From the NCBI RefSeq assembly GCF_964213995.1, contig NC_135805.1, forward strand, positions 83,452,001 through 83,516,000: a stretch of DNA of 64,000 bases, read 5' to 3'. Positions 2,338-59,495 of this stretch are shown piece by piece. The notes under the pieces were generated by a model. That model did not search any database and was not told the DNA's origin. It saw only the letters and a program-made list of their open reading frames with translations. The DNA comes from Mustelus asterias. Taxonomy: Eukaryota. Position 1 is the first letter of the stretch. Every line of letters starts with the position of its first letter. A program made the translations under genes and the position numbers.

Positions 2338-3230
2338 TATGACGCAATTTGCAGATGACACAGAAATTGGCTGTGTAGCTGACAATGAAGAGGATAGTTG
2401 TTGTCTCCAGAATGATATCAGTGGCTTGGTTGAGTGGGTGGGAAAATGATGAATGGAATTCAATTCAGAGAGGTGCATTTGAGGAAGGCAAACAAAGTTC
2501 AAGAATACACAATAAATGGGAGGATATTGAGAGGGGCAGAGGAAGGGGGAGACCTTGGAGTGCATTTCCACAGATCCCTGAAGATGATGTGACAAATGGA
2601 TAAGATCGTAAAGAAAGCATATGGAATACTTTCCTTTATTGGAGGAGATATTGAATACAGAAGTAGGGATGTAATGATGGAATTGTATAAAACGCTGGGC
2701 AGGCCACAGCAAGAATTGTGTTGCCATATTACAGGAAGGATATCATTGCTCTGCAGAAAGTACAAAGGAGATTTGCAAGAATGTTGCCAGGACATGAAAA
2801 TTGCATCAATGATGAAAGGTTGGATAGGCTGGGGTTGCTTTCCTTGGAACTCAGGAGGCTGAGGGCTGACCTGATTGAGGTGCACAAAGTTATCAGGGGC
2901 CTAAATAGAGTAGACAAGGATGTCCTGTTTCCCTTTGCGGGGTGGTCAATTACCGGGGCACAGATTTAAGGTGATGGGTCGAATGATTAGAGAGGACATG
3001 AGGAAAAACGTCTTCACCCAGAGGGTGGTGGGTGTTTGAAATTCGCTGGGTGGTGGAGGCAAAGACCCTCAACTCATTTAAACGGTACCTGGATCTGCAC
3101 CTGAAGTGCTGTAATTGCAAGGTTACAGACTGGGTGCTGGAAGGTTGGACTAGAACGAGCAGCTTGTTTTTTATGTTTTGGCCAACGCGGACACCAATGG
3201 GCTGAATGGCCTCTTTGTGTTGTAACATTT
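2338..3230 (+). mobile_element. Degenerate CR1 LINE (RT to 3' end); an upstream piece lies at ~1530-1802
   Basis: Motifs QFADDT, KKAYGILSFI...IEYRSRDVMMELYKTL and RLGLLSLELRRLRADLIEV across frameshifted ORFs. Confidence 0.9.
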
Positions 3231-4349: not shown

Positions 4350-5338
4350 GATGTGGAGATGCTGGCGTTGGACTGGGGTAAACACAGTAAGAAGTTTAAC
4401 ACCGCCAGGTTGAAGTCCAACAGGTTTATTTGGAAGCAAAGGCCACAAGCTTTCGGAGCCTTAAGCTCCTTCTTCAGGTGAGTTGGAATTCTGTTCACAA
4501 ACAGGGCATTTAAAGACACAAACTCAATTTATAGAATAATGGTTGGAATGCGAATACTTACAGCTAATCAAGTCTTAAAGGTACAAACAATGTGTGTAGA
4601 AAGAGCATTAAGACAGGTTAAAGAGATGTGTATTGTCTCCAGACAGGACAGCCAGTGAGACTCTGCAGGTCCAGGCAAGCTGGGGGGATTACAGATAGTG
4701 TGACATGAACCTAATATCCCGGTTGAGGCCATCCTCATGTGTGCGGAACTTGGCTATCAGTTTCTGCTCAACGGCTCTGCGCCGTCGTGTGTCGTGAAGG
4801 CCGCCTTGGAGAACGCTTACCCGAATATCAGAGGCCGAATGCCCGTGACTGCTGAAGTGTTGGGGAGCACTTCAGCAGTCACGGGCATTCAGCCTCTGAT
4901 ATTCGCGTAAGTGTTCTCCAAGGCGGCCTTCATGACACACGACGGCGCAGAGTCGCTGAGCAGAAACTGATAGCCAAGTTCTGCACACATGAGGACGGCC
5001 TCAACCGGGATATTGGGTTCATGTCACACTACCTGTAATCCCCACAGCTTGCCTGGACCTGCAGAGTCTCACTGGCTGTCCTGTCTGGAGACAATACACA
5101 TCTCTTTAACCTGTCTTAATGCTCTCTCCACACACACTGTTTGTACCTTTAAGACTTGACTAGCTGTAAATATTCGCATTCCAACCATTATTCTGTAAAT
5201 TGAGTTTGTGTCTTTATATGCCCTGTTTGTGAACAGAATTCCCACTCACCTGAAGAAGGAGCTTAAGGCTCCGAAAGCTTGTGGCTTTTGCTACCAAATA
5301 AACCTGTTGGACTTTAACCTGATGTTAAACATCTTACT
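4350..5338. mobile_element. Fold-back Penelope-like insertion (~470-bp inverted arms)
   Basis: Arms meet at 4859/4868. The right arm encodes GEHFSSHGHSASDIRVSVLQ...EQKLIAKFCTHEDGLNRDIGFMSHYL*. TSD GTGTCTTCCACA at 4338-4349 and 5339-5350. Confidence 0.92.
5247..5283 (+). ncRNA. Minimal type-I hammerhead ribozyme motif in PLE pLTR
   Basis: CAC / CTGAAGA / A / GGAGC-TTAAG-GCTCC / GAAA-GC-TT / GTG. Mirror copy at 4444-4480 (minus). Activity is untested. Confidence 0.7.
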
Positions 5339-6194
5339 GTGTCTTCCACAGTCCAAAGATGTGCAGTTTAGGTGGCTTGGCCATGCTAAATTGCCCCTTA
5401 GTTTGGGGGATTAGTGGGGTAAAATCCGTGGGGTTACGGGGATAGGGCCTGGGTGGGATTGTTGGTGCAGCTCGATGGGCAAATGGCCTCCTTCTGTACT
5501 GTAGGGATTCTACGATCATGACAAATTTTTATTGAATTCAAATTTCACGATTTGCCTTGATGGGATTTGAACCCAGTCTCCTGAACATTACCCTGGTCTC
5601 TGGATTATGAGTCCAGTGACATTACCACTATGCCACTGCCTCCCTTGAACATAGAAAATGAATGATAGCAAGCTGTAGACTCTAGATGTATCATAGCTGG
5701 GCGGCTCTGTGACTTAATTTCTACCAATATGTAGTTTTCAGCACTGAGTCATGATGTGAAAACTCTGGTGAAACTTCCCACCCTCAGCTCAGAGCCAGAG
5801 GCCAAGTGTAACACCCCTATATTAGAGATTGCCTGACTCCGCGCAGAAAGTGCTACACTGAATTGAAATGTGCTAATAATCTGTTATGGGAGATCTATCA
5901 CAGATCCCAAATTTTCCATCAGAATATGTAAATGGAAAATGTTACCCGTGTTAGTAGGTACTGCTTAAAACAGTCATTTCTGACTTATGACAACAGAACC
6001 ACCTAACTGGAATTAATTAGCCAGTTGTGAATCAGACTAAGAATGGAGTATAGATTTTCTAGACCCTTGTTAGTTAGAACATCAAGGGCAACTGGCCTCC
6101 TTCTGTACTGTAGGGAATGCCCAAAGTTTTTGGATGTTCTTGGCAAACGAGATCAAGAAGAACATCGACCCCCAAGATTTTCACATGTACCAAG

Positions 6195-32382: not shown

Positions 32383-33702
32383 AAATGCTTGTATGTCCCA
32401 CTTCATCTGTAGTTTTTAAAGCCTTCAGCATCTTCTTAGAATGGGCACTGTGTCAAAGAGTGCAAATATAGATCATCATTCACTAACTGAAGGTTTTGCT
32501 TTTAATGAGTCACCCCTAACAAATGTACCTTTGTGATACATTTGTTCTCACTCTGACCGAAGAATGGCAAGTCCCAGTAGATGAGGAAAAGACTAAAGTC
32601 CCAGCACCATCTTCTCCTTATTAACACATTACCCCGTTTTACAGAATATTGTGTTCTCCTTTCATTTCCTTGGGCTTTCAGCACCAAATTTCATTCAAAG
32701 GCAAATAGTTAAATTGATTCCAGACCACTTGGCTAATGCTGCCTAGAAACCGTTTAATAAGCAATGGATGGAAGCAACATCATTTAGTAAACTCTGTTTT
32801 ACTGCCTTCCTTTCAATAGGAAAGTACCTGTTGTGTTATTAATCCTGTGTGTGTGAGATTACAGGCACAAAGCCAGATGGCACCACTCAATGGCTAATTG
32901 TACAATGCTGCACACAATGCCACCAAATTCCTTTTATAGGAATGAAGCTAAAATTGATGGTACAAATCATAACTTTGAAGAAATAGAATTCATAAATTCT
33001 CAAGCTCTTAAATAATACAACAAATGCAACTGAGATACCTTCATATTAATCCATTTGTTTGCTTTCAGTAGGATGTTTGAAGGTGTAACATGCACAATGG
33101 ATAAAGAGGAGCCTGCAGACATACTGTACTTGGATTTCCAGCAGGTATTTTGGTAAGGTGCCACATCAAAGGTTATTGCAGAAAATGAAAAGTGTAAGGG
33201 TAACATTTTAACGTGGACAGAAGATTAGTTGGTTGGCAGAAAATAGAACGTATGCATAAATGTTTTTTTTCTGATTGGCAGGATGTGATGGATGGAGTCT
33301 CGCAGAGGTCTGTGCAGGGGCCTCGAATTTTTATAATTTATATCAATAACTTAAATGAGGAGAGCAAAGGCATGGTAGCTAAACTTGCAGATGACACTAA
33401 GATGGGTAGGAAAGTACGTTGTGAAGAACACACGAGGTTGCAGATAGTTATAGATGGTTTGAATAAGAGGGGGCAAATCTGGCAGACAGAGTAGAATGCT
33501 GGAAAATGTGAAGTTGTTCACTTTGGCAGGAAGAATGAAAAAGTTTAAATAGAAAACAGCTGTAGAATTCCGAGGTGGAAAGTGATCCAATCACACAAAG
33601 TTAGTGTGCATGTACAGCGCATAATTAAGAAGGCTATTGGAATGCTATCCTTCATCATGAGAGAAATCGAATATAAAAGTAAAGATGTTATGCTTCAATT
33701 AT

Positions 33703-34303
33703 GATGTGGAGATGCCGGCGTTGGACTGGGGTAAGCACAGTAAGAAGTCTCACAACACCAGGTTAAAATCCAACAGGTTTATTTGGCAGCACTAGCTTTC
33801 AGAGTCTCAAGCTACTTCATCAGGTGAGTGAGGACTTGTGTTCACAAACAGGGCATATAAAGACACAAACTCAATTTACAAGATAATGGTTGGAATGCGA
33901 GTCTTTACGGGTAATCAAGTCTTAAAGGTACAGACAATGTGAGTGGAGAGAGGGCCAAGCACAGGTTAAAGAGATATGTATTGTCTCCAGCCAGGACAGT
34001 TAGTGAGATTTTGCAAGCCCAGGCAAGTCGAGAAATCTCACTAACTGTCCTGGCTGGAGACAATACACATCTCTTTAACCTGTGCTTGGCCCTCTCTCCA
34101 CTCACATTGTCTGTACCTTTAAGACTTGATTATCTGTAAAGACTCGCATTCCAACCATTATCTTGTAAATTGAATTTGTGTCTTTATATGCCCTGTTTGT
34201 GAACACAAGTCCTCACTTACCTGATGAAGGAGCTTGAGACTCTGAAAGCTAGTGCTGTCAAATAAACCTGTTGGACTTTAACCTGGTGTTGTGAGACTTC
34301 TTA
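33703..34303. mobile_element. Fold-back Penelope-like insertion (~270-bp inverted arms)
   Basis: Arms meet at 34011/34033. TSD TATGCTTCAATTAT (33689-33702) / TATACTTCAATTAT (34305-34318). Hammerhead core CTGATGA..GAAAGCTA at 34218-34254. Confidence 0.92.
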
Positions 34304-38128: not shown

Positions 38129-39780
38129 GTCATCTTGTGCAGTCCCTTGGAGTCGAGGATGAATCCACTCTAAAAATGAGTTCTCTGGTGACTGAGGAGT
38201 CCAATGTGTGACCCACAGTCTCTGTCACAGATGGGGCACACAGTGGTTGGAGGGGCGGGTGGGTGGGGTGCCCGGGTGGGTGGGGTGCCCGGGCTGCCAC
38301 TTGCTCCTTTCACAGTCAACGCTTGGCTTCAGCTTGCTCTCAGTGATGAAACTCGAGGTGTTCAGCTCCTTCACAGATCTTTTCCTTCCCTTCAGGCAAT
38401 CTTGGGCCAGGGATTCCTAGGTGTTGGTGGGTATAGTGCACTTTTTCAAGGAGGCTTTGAGGATGTCCTTGGAGTATTTCCTCTGCCCTCTGCAGCTCAC
38501 TTTCTGTGCCAAAGTTCCAGTAGAACGCTCGTTTCTGGTACATCGTGTTAGGCATATTGATGATGTGGCTCGCCCTGTGGAGCTGATCGTGCTTGGTCAA
38601 TGCTTCAGTGCTGGGGATATTGGCCTGAACAAGAGCAGTAACATAGGTGCGCCTATCTTGCCAATGGATTTGCAGCATCTTGCAGAGACAGGGCTGGTGG
38701 TAATTCTCCAGGGTTTTGAGGCACCTGCTGTACACAGTCCACATCTCTGAACCATTCAGGAGAATGGGTATCATCAATACTCTGTAGACCATGAGTTTGG
38801 TTTCAAGTCTGAGGTTCTGGTTGTCAAACGCTCTGTTCCTCAGACCTGAAGTCTGCGCTGGCACACTGAAAACAGTGGTGAACCTCATCATCAATGTCTG
38901 CTCTTGTTGAGAGTAGGCTCCCAAGATATGGAAAGTAATCCACGTTATTCATTGTGGATTATAATAACTGGAGGAGAATCAGTGCTGTGTGGTGAGGGCA
39001 GGTTAGTAGAGGACCTTTTACTTACGGATATTTAGTGTAAGGCCCATGCTCTCATAAGCCACGGTGAAGATGTTGATGATGACTTGAAGCTTGGCCTCTG
39101 AGTGTGCACAGATACAAGCATTTGATTTGATTTGATTTATTATTGTCACATGTATTAACATACAGTGTAAAGTATTGTTTCTTGCACGTAATACAGACAA
39201 AACAAACTGTACATAGAGAAGGAAACGAGAGAGTGCCGAATGTAGTGTTACAATCATAGCTAGGGTGTAGAGAAAGATCAACTTAACGCAAGGTAAGTCC
39301 ATTCAAAAGTCTGACAGCAGCAGGGAAGAAGCTGTTATTGAGTCGGTTGGTGCGTGACCTTAGACTTGTATCTTTTTCCCGAAGGAAGAAGACATTGTCT
39401 GCATACTGTAATTCAGTGCCAGAGGATGGGATGACTTTGGATCTGGTATGCAGATGGCTGAGTTTGAACAGATCCCTGTTTGTTCTGTAGTTTGGCTCCA
39501 CTCCATCGGGGAGCTTGCTGAGGGTGAGAGGAAGCAATGCAGCAAGGGAAGGTAGAGAAGAATGTTGGTGCGATGACACAACCTTGCTTGACCCCAGTCC
39601 AAACTTGAATGAATCCATTGTCAGGACTGCGGTTTGCATGTCATCATGGAGCAGGCAGAGGATGGTAACAAAGTTTTTGGGCAGCACAAATGGAGGAGGA
39701 CACTCCATAATCCCTCACGGGTGACAGTGTCGAAGGCCTTTGTGAGGTCAAACAAGGCCATGTACCATGGTGCAGCTGAA
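38129..39780 (-). mobile_element. Degenerate RTE-clade LINE (RT and 3' end)
   Basis: Minus ORFs with LQYADN, YESMGLTLNIRK and TKLMVYRVLMIPILLNGSEMWTVY...LENYHQPCLCKMLQIHWQD, typical of RTE/BovB-like elements. Confidence 0.85.
39121..39392 (-). mobile_element. Rex1/L2-type LINE 3' fragment nested in the RTE
   Basis: SLRSRTNRLNNSFFPAAVRLLN; (GATTT)n tail. Confidence 0.85.
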
Positions 39781-39784
39781 GCAT

Positions 39785-40700
39785 TACCGCCCTCTGAGTG
39801 AAGAGGTCTCTCCTCGTCTCAGTCCTAAATGGCCTACCCTGCATCCTGAGACTATGACCCTTTGTTTTAGATCCCTCAGCCAGGGGAAAACATCATCACT
39901 GCATCCAGTCTGTCCACCCCTGTCAGAAGTTTAGATGTTCCAATGCAATCCAAACTCATACTTCTAAACTCCAGTGAATACAGGCCCAATTGACCCAATC
40001 TCTCCTCATACAATAATCCTACCATCCCAGGAATCAGTCTGGTGAACATTCGCTGCAGTCTCTCTATGGAAAGTAAATGTTTTCATGGTTAAGGAGACCA
40101 AAACTGCACACACTACTCCAGGTATGGTCTCACTAAGACCCTATATAGATGCAGTAAGACATCCACGCTCCTCTACTCAAATCCTCTTGCAATTAAAGCC
40201 AACACACCATTTGCCTTCCAAACTGTTTGCTGCTCCTGCATGCTTGCTTTCAGTGACTGGTGTACTAGGACACCAGGTGCCTTTATATGTCAAGGTTTCC
40301 CAATCTATCATAATTTAAATAATACTCTGCCATAATCTGAATCTGCTTAAAGTCAGGAAATGTGCAGCCAGAATTTGATAACTTCACACTTATCCATGCT
40401 ATACTGCATCTGCCATGTATTTGTCCACTCACTCAACTTGTCTAAATCGCCTTGAAACCTCTCTACTTCCACCTCATCACTCACAATTCCACCTAGTCTT
40501 GTGTCATCAGCTAACTTGGAAATAGTACACTTGATTCCCTTATCCAAATTGTTGATATATATTGTGAATAGCTGTAGCTCAAGCACTGATCTCTGTGGCA
40601 CCCCACTAACCACTGCTATCTACTCTGAAAAACACCCATTTATTCCTTTTCTCTCATTCCGATATATTACCCCAAATCCCATGTGCTTTAATTTTTCACA
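39785..40700 (-). mobile_element. Degenerate CR1 LINE
   Basis: GVPQRSVLELQLFTIYIN...KLADDT...WQMQYSMDKCEVI. Confidence 0.88.
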
Positions 40701-40711
40701 CAATCACTTTA

Positions 40712-40842
40712 GGGTGGGATTTTCCGGCCGCGCTCACCCCAAGTCCGGAAAGTCCTGCCCGAGGTCAATAGACCTTTTCATGGCCTGTGTCCCGCCCACC
40801 GCAATTCCTGTGGCGGGCGGGTGGGATGGGAAAAATCTGCCC
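40712..40842. mobile_element. Short Harbinger-type MITE
   Basis: TIRs GGGTGGGATTTTCC / GGAAAAATCTGCCC; flanks TTA/TAA (TWA-like target). Confidence 0.7.
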
Positions 40843-41164
40843 TAAGTGTCTTGAAACTTAAGCCATTAAGATATTACCAGTATCAATATTTTAAATAGTT
40901 GTGCTGAAACTTGCCTCTTTGTTTTTGTGCCAGCAATAGTTAATTCACATTTTTACTTAGAGACAGGATTAAGGTCTTTCCATGGAGAAGGGGATAGGGA
41001 ACGCCATTTTTGGATCAGGTTACAGGCTTTGCTATAAATCCAGAGACAGTGACAGTTGCTGTTTTGGTCTTGTATAGTTTGCAAATCACGAAGTCCAGGA
41101 GTCAAAAGAGATAAACGTTAACCTGGCCTGCACCTTAAGCAGACAAAACCGGATGGAACAAAAA

Positions 41165-41300
41165 CAGCTCTGATGAAGGGTCATCCTGACTTGAAATGTT
41201 AGCTCTAGTCTCTCTCCACAGATGCTGTCAGACCGGCTGAGTTTCTCCAACATTTCATGTTTTTGTTTCAGATTCCAGCATCCGCAGTATTTTGACTTTA
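41165..41300 (+). mobile_element. PLE family B terminal repeat with hammerhead motif
   Basis: AGCT / CTGATGA / A-GGGTC-ATCCT-GACTT / GAAA-TG-TT / AGCT at 41166-41204. Confidence 0.7.
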
Positions 41301-41552
41301 TAAAACCAGACGAAATGCAGGTGGGTTCTCGTGCTCAGTTTGGAGACAGTGTTTGTGAGGGGAAAAGAGACATGAAGATTTGCTTACCCTGGAGTTTGAT
41401 GAAGCAATCTACAGTAACCCTCACAGTAAAAAGCTGTTAGTCTGGGAGCAAACTGGGAAAATACGTTTGAGTCTGTTTGAAGCCAGGAAATATGCAGGCA
41501 GAAGTGAGTTACACTCTGCAGCATTCTACGCCCCTGACACCTCATGCAGCCA

Positions 41553-41955
41553 TGATGTGGAGATGCCGGTGTTGGACTGGGGTAAACACAGTAAGAAGTT
41601 TAACAACACCAGGTTAAAGTCCAACAGGTTTATTTGGTAGCATAAGCCACACAAGCTTTCGGAGCTCTAAGCCCCTTCTTCACCTGATTCCACCTAGTCT
41701 TGTGTCTAGACTAGAGCTAACATTTCAAGTCAGGATGACCCTTCATCAGAGCTGCTTTTGTTCCATCCGGTTTTGTCTGCTTAAGGTGCAGGCCAGGTTA
41801 ACGTTTATCTCTTTTGTCTCCTGGACTTCCAGTGATTTGCAAACTATACAAGACCAAAACACCTGAAGAAGGGGCTTAGAGCTCCGAAAGCTTGTGTGGC
41901 TTTTGCTACCAAATAAACCTGTTGGACTTTAACCTGGTGTTGTTAAACTTCTTAC
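41553..41955. mobile_element. Fold-back PLE family A insertion enclosing captured local DNA
   Basis: Inverted pLTR arms 41553-41682 and 41860-41955; TSD CCTCATGCAGCCA at 41540-41552 and 41955-41967. Confidence 0.92.
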
Positions 41956-42181
41956 CTCATGCAGCCACAGTATTCATGTGGCTGGCATTATTCAGTTTCT
42001 GAAGGTCAAAGATGACTCTCTGCCAGGATGTTGATGGTGGGTAATTTGATGATGATAATGCCATTGAGTGCCAAGGGGAAGTTGTTAGACTTTTTTTCTT
42101 GTTGGAGCTATTGCCTGGCACTTGTGTGAAACAAATATTATTTGCCACTGAGCAGCACAAGCCAGAATGTTGTCCTGGTCT

Positions 42182-43050
42182 TTTGATTTGATTTGATTTA
42201 TTGTTGTCACATGTATTGTTATTCAGTGAAAAGTATCATACAAACAAAGCATACTGTTCACAGAGTACATAGGGGAGAAGGAAAGGAGAGGGTGCAGAAT
42301 GTAGTGTTAGTCATAGCTAGGGTGTAGAGAAAAATCAACTTGATATATGGTAGGTCCATTCAAAAGTCTGATGGCAGCAGGGAAGAAACTATTCTTGAGT
42401 CGGTTGGTGCGTGATCTCAGACTTTTGTATCTTTTTCCCAATGGAAGAGAGCATGTCTGGGGTGTGTGGGGCCCTTGATCATGCTGGCTGCTTTTCCGAG
42501 GCAGCGGGAAGTGTAGACAGTGTCAATGGATGGGAGGCTGGTTTGAGTGATGGACTGGACTACGTTCATAACCCTTTGTAGTTTCTTATTCAGAGCAGGA
42601 GCCATACCAAGCTGTGATACATCCAGAAAGGATGTTTTCAATGGTGCATCTGTAAAAATTGGTGAGAGTTGTAGCAGACATGCCAAATTTCCTTAGCCTC
42701 CTGAAAAAGCAGAGGCATTGGTGGGCTTTCTTAGCTATAGATCGATGTAGAGGGACCGGCATAGATTGCAGGTAATCTAGACACTTAGAAATTTGAAGCT
42801 CTCGAACATTTCCACTTCACGCAGGTTGGTGTAGACAATGGCATGTCCTCCACTACGATTCCTGAAGTTGATGACTATCTCCTTCATTTTAGTGACATTG
42901 AGGGAGAGATTATTGTTGTCGCACCAGTTCACCAGGTTCTCTATCTCATTCCTGTACTCTGTCTCATCATTGTTCGAGATCTGACCCACTGCAGTGGTGT
43001 CATCAGCAAACTTGAGAATGGACTTGGAACGGAACTGGGCCACATAGGCC
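42182..43050 (-). mobile_element. Rex1/L2-type LINE fragment (RT and 3' end)
   Basis: SILKFADDTTAVGQISNNDETEYRNEIENLVNWCDNNNLSLNVTKMKEIVINFR; (GATTT)n tail. Confidence 0.88.
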
Positions 43051-43959
43051 CATAGGGACTGTTTCATCCTCTGAGGAATTGTGAATGGAACTGCTGAATA
43101 GCATGCAATCAACAGCCAGTGTCCCCATTTCTGACCTTATGATGGCGGTCAGTCAGTGACAAAGCAGCTGAAGATGATTCGGGCTAGAACATCACCCTGG
43201 GAGTGATGCTTTGGGCAACAAAGAGTTGTTCACAGAAGGGTAAGACTCATAGGGAGAAGCATGGTATGGCTTGATGAACAGGGTCTTGCCAATGTCTAGA
43301 TGGTTTGAGTAGTGCAAGTTGTGGTAGGAATAGTTACCTGGTGGATTTGTCTAATTGGATCATTAAGTGGCAGGGTAGATAAACACAAACTAATTAATAT
43401 ATGAGCAAGGAACTAAGTGAGGAAATGTGTTAAATAGAAAAATAGTTACTGTGAATATTGTGTTTTGTGCCTTAGAGGTCGGCAGTGATGGCACCATGTT
43501 CTATGTGAGCAGCAGGAGTTTTATTTCCACGGATGGTTTAAGATGTCTGCTGTCACATGTTTACAGCTTCTTGCTTCAGATTAATTTTGGTTTCTCTCTC
43601 TAACTACGTAAAGAACAACAAACAGATACCAGACAAACGCAATTAACAATTGGATGCTACAAATATATCCATGATAACATCAGGCCTCTGTCTAAGTATA
43701 GGTTTTAAAAAGAAAATAAGGTGTTTATGACATTAGCAGAGGGATAAAATATCAATCAAAATAAGTTATATTTTTATTTCAATGGTTCAACTATTGTGCA
43801 GTGTTGTGTGCAGTTGTGATAACCTACAGATATAAGAAGAATATTATTGTTACATGGGTTAGCAACAAAGATGATTCCAGGTGTCAAGAATTCAAGGTAT
43901 GGAAACGATTAAGGAAATTAAATTTTATCTGCATGGAAAGAAGCAATTTGAAGTTTAAG

Positions 43960-44246
43960 TTTATTTTTAATGTCACAAGTAGGCTTACATTAACACTGCA
44001 ACGAAGTTACTGTGAAAATCCCCTAGTCGCCACACTCTGGCACCTGTTCGGGTACACTGAGGGAGAATTTAACATGGCCAATCCACCTAACCAGCATGTC
44101 TTTCGGGCTGTGGGAGGAAACCAGAGCACACAGAGAAAACCCACGCAGATACTCGGAGAATGTGCAGACTCCACACAGACAGTGACCCAAGCCAAGAATC
44201 GAACACAGGTCCCTGGCACTGTGCTAACCACTGTGCCACCGTGCCA
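43960..44246 (-). mobile_element. tRNA SINE (family of 11413)
   Basis: Reverse complement of 11413-11705. Confidence 0.85.
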
Positions 44247-59224: not shown

Positions 59225-59350
59225 TTGACGAAGCAGCAGCGCTCCGAAAGCTAGTGGCGTTTGCTACCAAATAAACCTGTTGGACTTTAACCTGGTGTTG
59301 TTAAACTCCTTACTGTGTTTACCCCAGTTCAATGCCGGCATTTCCACATC
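59225..59350 (+). mobile_element. Solo PLE family A pLTR inserted in an old CR1
   Basis: TTGACGA-AGCAGCAGCGCTCC-GAAAGCTA-GTG...CCCCAGTTCAATGCCGGCATTTCCACATC; flanking duplication ATAAATGGAG. Confidence 0.85.
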
Positions 59351-59495
59351 ATAATAAATGGAGGCATAGAGTACAAAAGCAGGAGATTTACACTAAACCT
59401 TTATAAAACATTGGTTAAGCCCCAGCTGGAGGATTGTGGCCAGTTCTGGACACCAAACTTTAAGAAGGATATCAAGGCATTGGAGAAGGTGCAGA

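Follow-up and report, generated by a model that had tools for sequence, protein, structure and literature searches.

Endonuclease-bearing Penelope-like elements (EN+ PLEs) have an open reading frame (ORF) for a reverse transcriptase (RT) with a C-terminal GIY-YIG endonuclease (EN), pseudo-long terminal repeats (pLTRs) of which an inverted and 5'-truncated one may lie head-to-head with another, a tail of 30-40 bp at one end, and a target-site duplication (TSD) (PMC8557442; PMC3846280). How do such inverted arms and such a tail come about? Formation of the tandem/inverted structure and of the tail has been described as undefined (PMC8557442; PMC11167929), and self-priming or EN-mediated resolution has been invoked in papers on EN+ PLEs. 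In Adineta, unrelated sequences are captured between pLTRs (PMC3846280); the captured sequences described in these papers have not been followed back to DNA that flanks the insertion. Here, we describe an insertion of an EN+ PLE of the same general build at positions 41553-41955 of a 64,000-nt stretch of Mustelus asterias DNA (RefSeq assembly GCF_964213995.1, contig NC_135805.1, 83,452,001 to 83,516,000; hereafter the window), in which the DNA between two inverted pLTR arms is traced to the flank. Together with other copies of the family, it leads us to propose two-ended priming at the target. Tails are treated in print as optional or as often present at one end only, whereas here exactly one end carries a tail in 102 of 102 TSD-bounded pairs.

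A biochemical parallel is Poseidon PAc of Anolis, a predicted dimer which in vitro cuts and extends both target strands and starts reverse transcription at two internal sites spaced by the tail, much as proposed here (PMC11167929). While PAc in vitro used its start sites alike on either strand and needed no primer-template homology, genomic copies of the present family have one start site per end and 1-3 nt of pairing; the joining of the two cDNAs is not dealt with in the text consulted on PAc. In twin priming of L1, both target nicks prime cDNA, as here, and 22 somatic insertions in about 3,600 L1-solos copied non-L1 genomic templates shorter than 250 bp (bioRxiv 10.1101/2024.08.27.596794). 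Unlike L1, however, the locus described here has two templates of opposite polarity in one joint, four of five capture cases in the family draw on DNA 0.3-1.1 kb away, and it is one and the same end of the element that both arms reproduce, starting in two internal regions and lacking poly(A). Inserts made by SD-MMEJ (end joining mediated by microhomology and dependent on synthesis) or by polymerase theta (Pol-theta) share with the present joint a reiterated priming, usually from one flank, through 1-2 nt of microhomology, but they are mostly about 10 bp and are primed within 10 bp of the break (PMC2943611; PMC5068794), while here a tract of 152 nt was copied and the templates are hundreds of bases away. 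Our literature search, which was thin on older Penelope work and does not establish absence, found no paper on flank-templated joints between PLE arms or on a strict one-tail rule.

The insertion itself lacks the ORF. Its left arm (41553-41682, minus strand) corresponds to positions 3151 to 3022 of a natural full-length copy, L061, and carries at 41553-41590 a 38-nt tail that is found on this arm only; the right arm (41860-41955, plus strand; L061 positions 3018-3113) is tail-less and holds a minimal hammerhead-like motif. The two are identical at 91 of 92 positions in inverted orientation, and their inner ends fall within 4 nt of each other in element coordinates. The pair is bounded by direct repeats of 14 nt (41539-41552 and 41954-41967, both on the plus strand), not by a TSD of 13 bp as a preceding reading of the sequence alone (the sequence-only reading) had it; the first 2 nt of the right copy overlap the end of the right arm, and the 14 nt probably consist of a 12-bp target duplication, the mode of the family, plus about 2 nt of terminal microhomology. 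The insertion is young, for its left arm shows 2 differences in 130 sites when compared with the sister copies L003 and L020, and the end repeats are identical.

Between the arms lie, in order, 4 nt, a 20-mer, 1 nt, and an inverted copy of nearby DNA. The 20-mer (41687-41706, plus strand) is an exact direct copy of 40486-40505 on the same strand, 1.05 kb upstream; it has only two exact matches in the 3.68-Gb genome, both at this locus (reversed control: none), and the computed probability of a chance match within 2 kb is about 4e-8. Its source lies inside what we take to be an old multi-copy repeat of CR1/L2-like type, and the 320 nt around it have 20 matches in the fetched loci, the eight listed being 68-84% identical. 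The inverted copy (154 nt, 41708-41861, minus strand) comes from 41060-41211 on the plus strand, from which it differs by 2 substitutions and one 2-nt indel. The last ~50 nt of this source run into another abundant repeat, while the less repetitive 106 nt (41060-41165) have 18 matches in the genome among the best candidates, which alone were scored: only the source (100%) and the spacer copy (97%) are near-full-length, and the remaining 16 are partial, at 75-90% identity. Because the 20-mer and 41060-41165 map near-fully only to this locus, the spacer is local in origin and is no fixed internal part of a multi-copy element. Thus the sequence-only reading was right about the inverted arms, about both captured pieces and their orientations, and about the CA through which the second piece joins the right arm (41860-41861, common to both). 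It is to be noted that 41160-41300 of the window is an abundant short repeat with 31 matches in the fetched loci, of which the first 50 nt were captured, and which presumably carries a hammerhead-like motif.

Two features of the joint had been missed at that time. Read directly from the sequence, the 7 nt at 41681-41687 (plus strand) are the same as the start of the right arm (41860-41866), and they would represent an abortive first join to the partner arm. At the other side of the 20-mer, 41708-41714 is the reverse complement of 41694-41700, a 7-mer within the 20-mer, and the two make a 7-bp hairpin (41694-41714, plus strand; DNA fold -4.0 kcal/mol) that spans the joint of the two pieces. Its 3' strand also matches the end of the second source, 41205-41211, and over 2 kb of left flank, of the 2,026 other positions only 4 offer such a 7-mer; this match is probably a microhomology made by snap-back. 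If the spacer is read as an extension of the left cDNA 3' end, all of its bases but one are accounted for. The templates lie about 1,050 nt (first piece) and about 330-480 nt (second piece) from the TSD. In place of two jumps, as was supposed before, the junction suggests about four template switches.

What kind of insertion could leave such a joint? We consider it probable that both ends of one staggered cut primed, and that the two cDNAs were joined at the target by iterative end-joining. The GIY-YIG nuclease would cut with a 12-bp stagger to leave two 3' ends, and each of them, as the pattern in the family strongly indicates, would prime reverse transcription on element RNA. One end would start at the start site of the tail and the other at a site about 38 nt upstream, with a pairing of 1-3 nt to assist, so that one tailed and one tail-less antisense cDNA would be produced. 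Both presumably stop after about 95-130 nt and would have to be joined head-to-head. The left cDNA end may then pair by CA with the right cDNA end, extend by 5 nt, and release; next it may copy 20 nt from the bottom strand 1.05 kb upstream, by loop-out or invasion. Snap-back on itself would yield the 7-nt end matching 41205-41211, from which about 152 nt would be copied leftwards along its own top strand, and a final re-pairing of CA with the right cDNA would close the joint. The outcome would be a local inverted duplication locked inside the insertion. In published SD-MMEJ, loop-out gives direct and snap-back inverted templated inserts (PMC2943611), and reiterated priming from one flank has been described for POLQ (PMC5068794).

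The evidence for two-ended priming comes mainly from the family. An exact-seed search of the genome found 4,420 head-to-head arm pairs within 400 nt, and therefore inverted arm pairs are routine in this genome. Figures on prevalence rest on the first 50 listed pairs, all on contig C1 (including a pair of near-duplicates, L046 and L047, and two delimited by hand), plus loci selected by similarity (L001-L185 in all). All of those 50 have one tailed and one tail-less arm, and 43 have a TSD, of 12 bp in 24, which is the mode. In an automated pass over 179 loci, 134 candidate pairs were recovered, 105 with a TSD; after 3 near-duplicates were dropped, exactly one arm is tailed in 102 of 102, although part of this set was found with tailed queries, and for that part only the statement that both arms are never tailed is informative. 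Among the 29 pairs without a TSD, 19 are one-tailed and 10 appeared to be doubly tailed. Eight of these 10 were rejected as mis-pairings with the internal pLTR-ORF junction, and another, L173, as a fold-back with a tail-less arm further out. The one-tail rule with its 12-bp TSD mode may be a more general result than the locus itself.

The reach of the arms points in the same direction. Of 60 simple young pairs, 12 have a tail-less arm that exceeds the tailed one in reach into the element by more than 15 nt, 8 have a tailed arm that does so, and 40 agree within 15 nt, in a comparison biased by the 400-nt limit towards pairs that are short and symmetric. In the first 12 pairs neither arm was copied from the other and both were templated on element RNA, because each arm has sequence that the other lacks. 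Of 47 pairs that could be scored, 42 have the same stem variant in both arms (random expectation 0.28), while 4 (L007, L035, L037 and L005) combine two different variants of common subfamilies; thus a single RNA is usually the source, and in some cases there were two RNAs, or else one tandem transcript of mixed type. Among pairs with an exact 12-bp TSD (58 of 66 ends scorable), a match of at least 2 nt between target and RNA is found at 15 of the 25 ends without a tail and at 12 of the 33 with one, where chance would give 1 in 16. Two-ended priming is favoured over self-priming by the one-tail rule and by these arms, which cannot be mutual fold-backs.

How often, then, is flanking DNA captured? 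Examination of the sampled inverted pairs, in line with the scan that the sequence-only reading had advised, does find the phenomenon at other loci. Among the 50 unselected pairs there is one clear capture (1/50; 95% interval 0.05-10.7%), L028, whose filler holds 49 nt exactly matching, in direct orientation, DNA 396 nt into the right flank, the best control match being 11 nt. The other clear case comes from the selected loci: L173 (1323-7471), where a 2,632-nt fold-back at 99.8% identity runs through the tailed arm into 457 nt of adjacent left flank, and where the inverted flank copy (457 nt at 99.3%) is followed by the tail-less arm, all inside a 12-bp TSD. Two more captures among the selected loci are probable. 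In L086, about 220 nt are an inverted copy of DNA 454-694 nt away and are followed by a fold-back; this filler is repeat-derived, though no other flank scored better. In L084, about 175 nt are a direct copy of DNA 600-780 nt away; most of it is SINE-like, a short match goes beyond the end of the repeat, and 4 other flanks scored equally well. Overall, 103 pairs, with flanks examined for the most part to 1.4 kb, gave 2 captures that are clear and 2 that are probable, and four of the five cases, with the present locus, have templates at 0.3-1.1 kb. Fillers of L015 (10 nt) and L042 (13 nt) match their own flanks within chance over 27 tests and were not counted; the spacers of L048 and L183 are other repeats, read as later insertions, and L059 and L171, which lie among young multi-copy repeats, were left out of the count. 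Fillers at L119:5358-5381 (24 nt) and L138:1286-1492 (207 nt) match neither the element nor the wider flanks. Most joints of pairs show plain microhomology, or a short or element-derived filler.

Given two-ended priming, which polymerase made the joint? With a little less confidence than in the priming itself, we favour a host Pol-theta-type synthesis-dependent end-joining, the element's own RT being the main alternative. The insert is flank-templated through short microhomology, as such joining would have it, and host joining fits the junction at least as well as the jumping PLE reverse transcriptase that the sequence-only reading put before repair synthesis. Capture would have taken place during insertion and not at a later break. 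Several points weigh against this account. Both the joining polymerase and the simultaneity of capture and insertion are what we infer. The 20-mer is entered through a microhomology of only 1 nt, and snapping back would have to begin from 1 bp with one mismatch. The templates are not within tens of bases of the break, as Pol-theta and SD-MMEJ inserts would have them, but 0.3-1.1 kb away, far beyond published distances: about 85% of POLQ inserts in Caenorhabditis elegans are primed within 10 bp of the break (PMC5068794), and templated insertions of L1 are typically within 15 bp (bioRxiv 10.1101/2024.08.27.596794). The RT of the Anolis element, though this element does cut and extend both strands from two start sites spaced by the tail, primed in vitro with neither homology nor strand difference in start site (PMC11167929). 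No contig among the public pieces listed from four runs bridges the spacer junctions. One pair of two tailed arms with no TSD (L158:1363-1611) may be an exception to the one-tail rule.

It is also conceivable, but unlikely, that insertion was two-ended and that the element's own RT jumped onto flanking DNA or a nascent transcript. The Anolis RT does start at internal sites with no homology (PMC11167929), template jumps have been proposed for captured sequence in rotifer Penelope (PMC3846280), and L1 cDNA is proposed to pair with nearby DNA (bioRxiv 10.1101/2024.08.27.596794). Yet the two pieces are of opposite strands, so one nascent RNA cannot template both, whichever cDNA is extended; local templates on opposite strands survive from the sequence-only reading. 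Moreover, the abortive 5-nt extension and the snap-back microhomology match the description of SD-MMEJ. To an equal degree we doubt that a plain palindrome was inserted and broken later at its centre, with repair by templated end-joining and with capture unrelated to retrotransposition. Centres of palindromes are fragile, the arms here end within 4 nt of each other, and the divergence between arms (1/92) and between copy and source is too small to order the events. Against a later break, plain joints of sister copies also have microhomology, short fillers and fold-backs, which argues that the joint is error-prone as it is formed, and L173, with its fold-back arm running into flank and with TSD and tail-less arm intact, is most simply understood as one event.

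An assembly or read artefact is very improbable, even though the spacer junctions are bridged by no public contig among the pieces listed, where repeats crowd the listing. These pieces are contigs from four runs aligned to the locus; runs covering a small share of the stretch, two of them labelled shark metagenome, were left out except X5. Runs X1 and X5 are from organisms other than the source organism, X1 being organism A. A contig of X22 with zero differences (41272-41574) crosses the left junction by 22 nt, where 31 would be needed for a bridge, and no empty-site joint is displayed among the pieces listed from the four runs. In organism A, one contig covers the source plus its left flank (40754-41196), and another starts at 41956; since its 50 further letters do not match the arm, the arm seems to be absent at this site in that organism. 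In both organism A and organism B the source 41060-41211 lies within its proper left flank, and the source is thus older than the copy. Of 3 sites at which the copy differs from the assembled source, 2 have in the copy the source state of organisms A/B: at 41102 the contigs of X1, X5 and X22 that cover the source show A as the copy does, unlike the assembled source, and after 41089 they carry, like the copy, two extra letters that the assembled source lacks, identical in X5 and X22 and with one differing in X1. The X22 source contig may be a merged path; its depth of 28.4, against 25-27 in its neighbours, is compatible with the copy being present or absent. The copy thus keeps the older source state, which an assembly artefact would not readily yield. 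The TSD and the tail rule are also intact, and similar captures are found at other loci. As separate observations, the assembled source has its 2-nt deletion and its substitution clustered 13 nt apart (41089-41102) relative to the copy and to organisms A/B, and a contig of organism A departs from the window sequence after 41503 for 318 letters, which suggests an independent insertion there about 40 nt from this site.

Weakest of all, and hardly credible, are two further readings. In one, the spacer would belong as a fixed part to some multi-copy element, which is refuted by the mapping of its pieces to this locus only. In the other, the arms would arise before integration by self-priming or fold-back, as proposed for head-to-head Penelope palindromes (PMC3846280) and in line with the shared variant of 42 of 47 pairs. 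But DNA of the target flank could not be contained in an intermediate formed before integration, each arm of 12 among 60 pairs has sequence lacking in the other, and 4 of 47 mix subfamily variants.

As to the element, the arms match at 97-98% identity the pLTR of full-length copies, which have pLTRs in partial tandem and inverted arrangement, a 30-40 nt tail and a TSD. Of the 20 long copies fetched, nine keep a frame of at least 909 aa (909-912 aa) without interruption, in which DKG and YIDD motifs are visible. RVT_1 of Pfam is above its cut-off in both frames tested (32.7 bits against 29.6 for a 912-aa ORF), and PF01541 GIY-YIG is found in the last 152 aa of one frame (24.0 bits against 22.6), though not when the whole protein was scanned; the EN region matches only endonuclease II in PDB, and weakly (E 0.64). 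By these domains the element is assigned to the EN+ PLEs. A linker motif C-X4-C-X2-C at about residues 774-782 suggests Neptune, whose definition includes a CX2-5CxxC linker between RT and EN, or Nematis, which also has a linker motif (PMC8557442). An Rfam scan of 39000-44000 gave no match and no ribozyme. The pLTR motif occurs 339 times in the fetched loci, as a rule with a CUGANGA-type core; only 4 of these occurrences have G as the cleavage-site base, and stem I, of 3 bp, is paired in 257 of 296. These counts fit a putative minimal type I hammerhead. A 62-nt insert near the ORF end, copied faithfully into all arms, marks a subfamily (L069, L070, L119, L120, L121, L123, L125, L130-L134 and L167). 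Elsewhere in the window are two older ordinary inverted pairs of the same element with no foreign spacer (4350-5356 and 33702-34303) and single arms at 1802-2324 and 59245-59351; there are no tRNA genes in the window.

What does such a locus mean for these elements? Inverted pLTRs, a one-end tail and captured unrelated DNA in PLEs are already in print, as are twin priming and templated insertions in L1; the locus has no evident function, and templated capture at retrotransposon junctions was known for L1. Its main value is as evidence that the head-to-head joint of a PLE forms at the target from two separately primed cDNAs: the DNA of the target flank trapped inside the joint points to its being made there. 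In a broader form, in which we see even chances of being right, PLEs would integrate by obligatory two-ended priming, with one ribonucleoprotein placing the tail start site at one end of a 12-bp staggered cut and the tail-less site at the other and sometimes using two different RNAs, and with a joint made at the target and open to flanks hundreds of bases away, so that a few per cent of thousands of insertions would leave local direct or inverted duplications. If it is true, structural variation would have in it a distinct route driven by a retroelement, and the question of how the inverted repeats and the tails of PLEs are formed would have an answer from genomic data.
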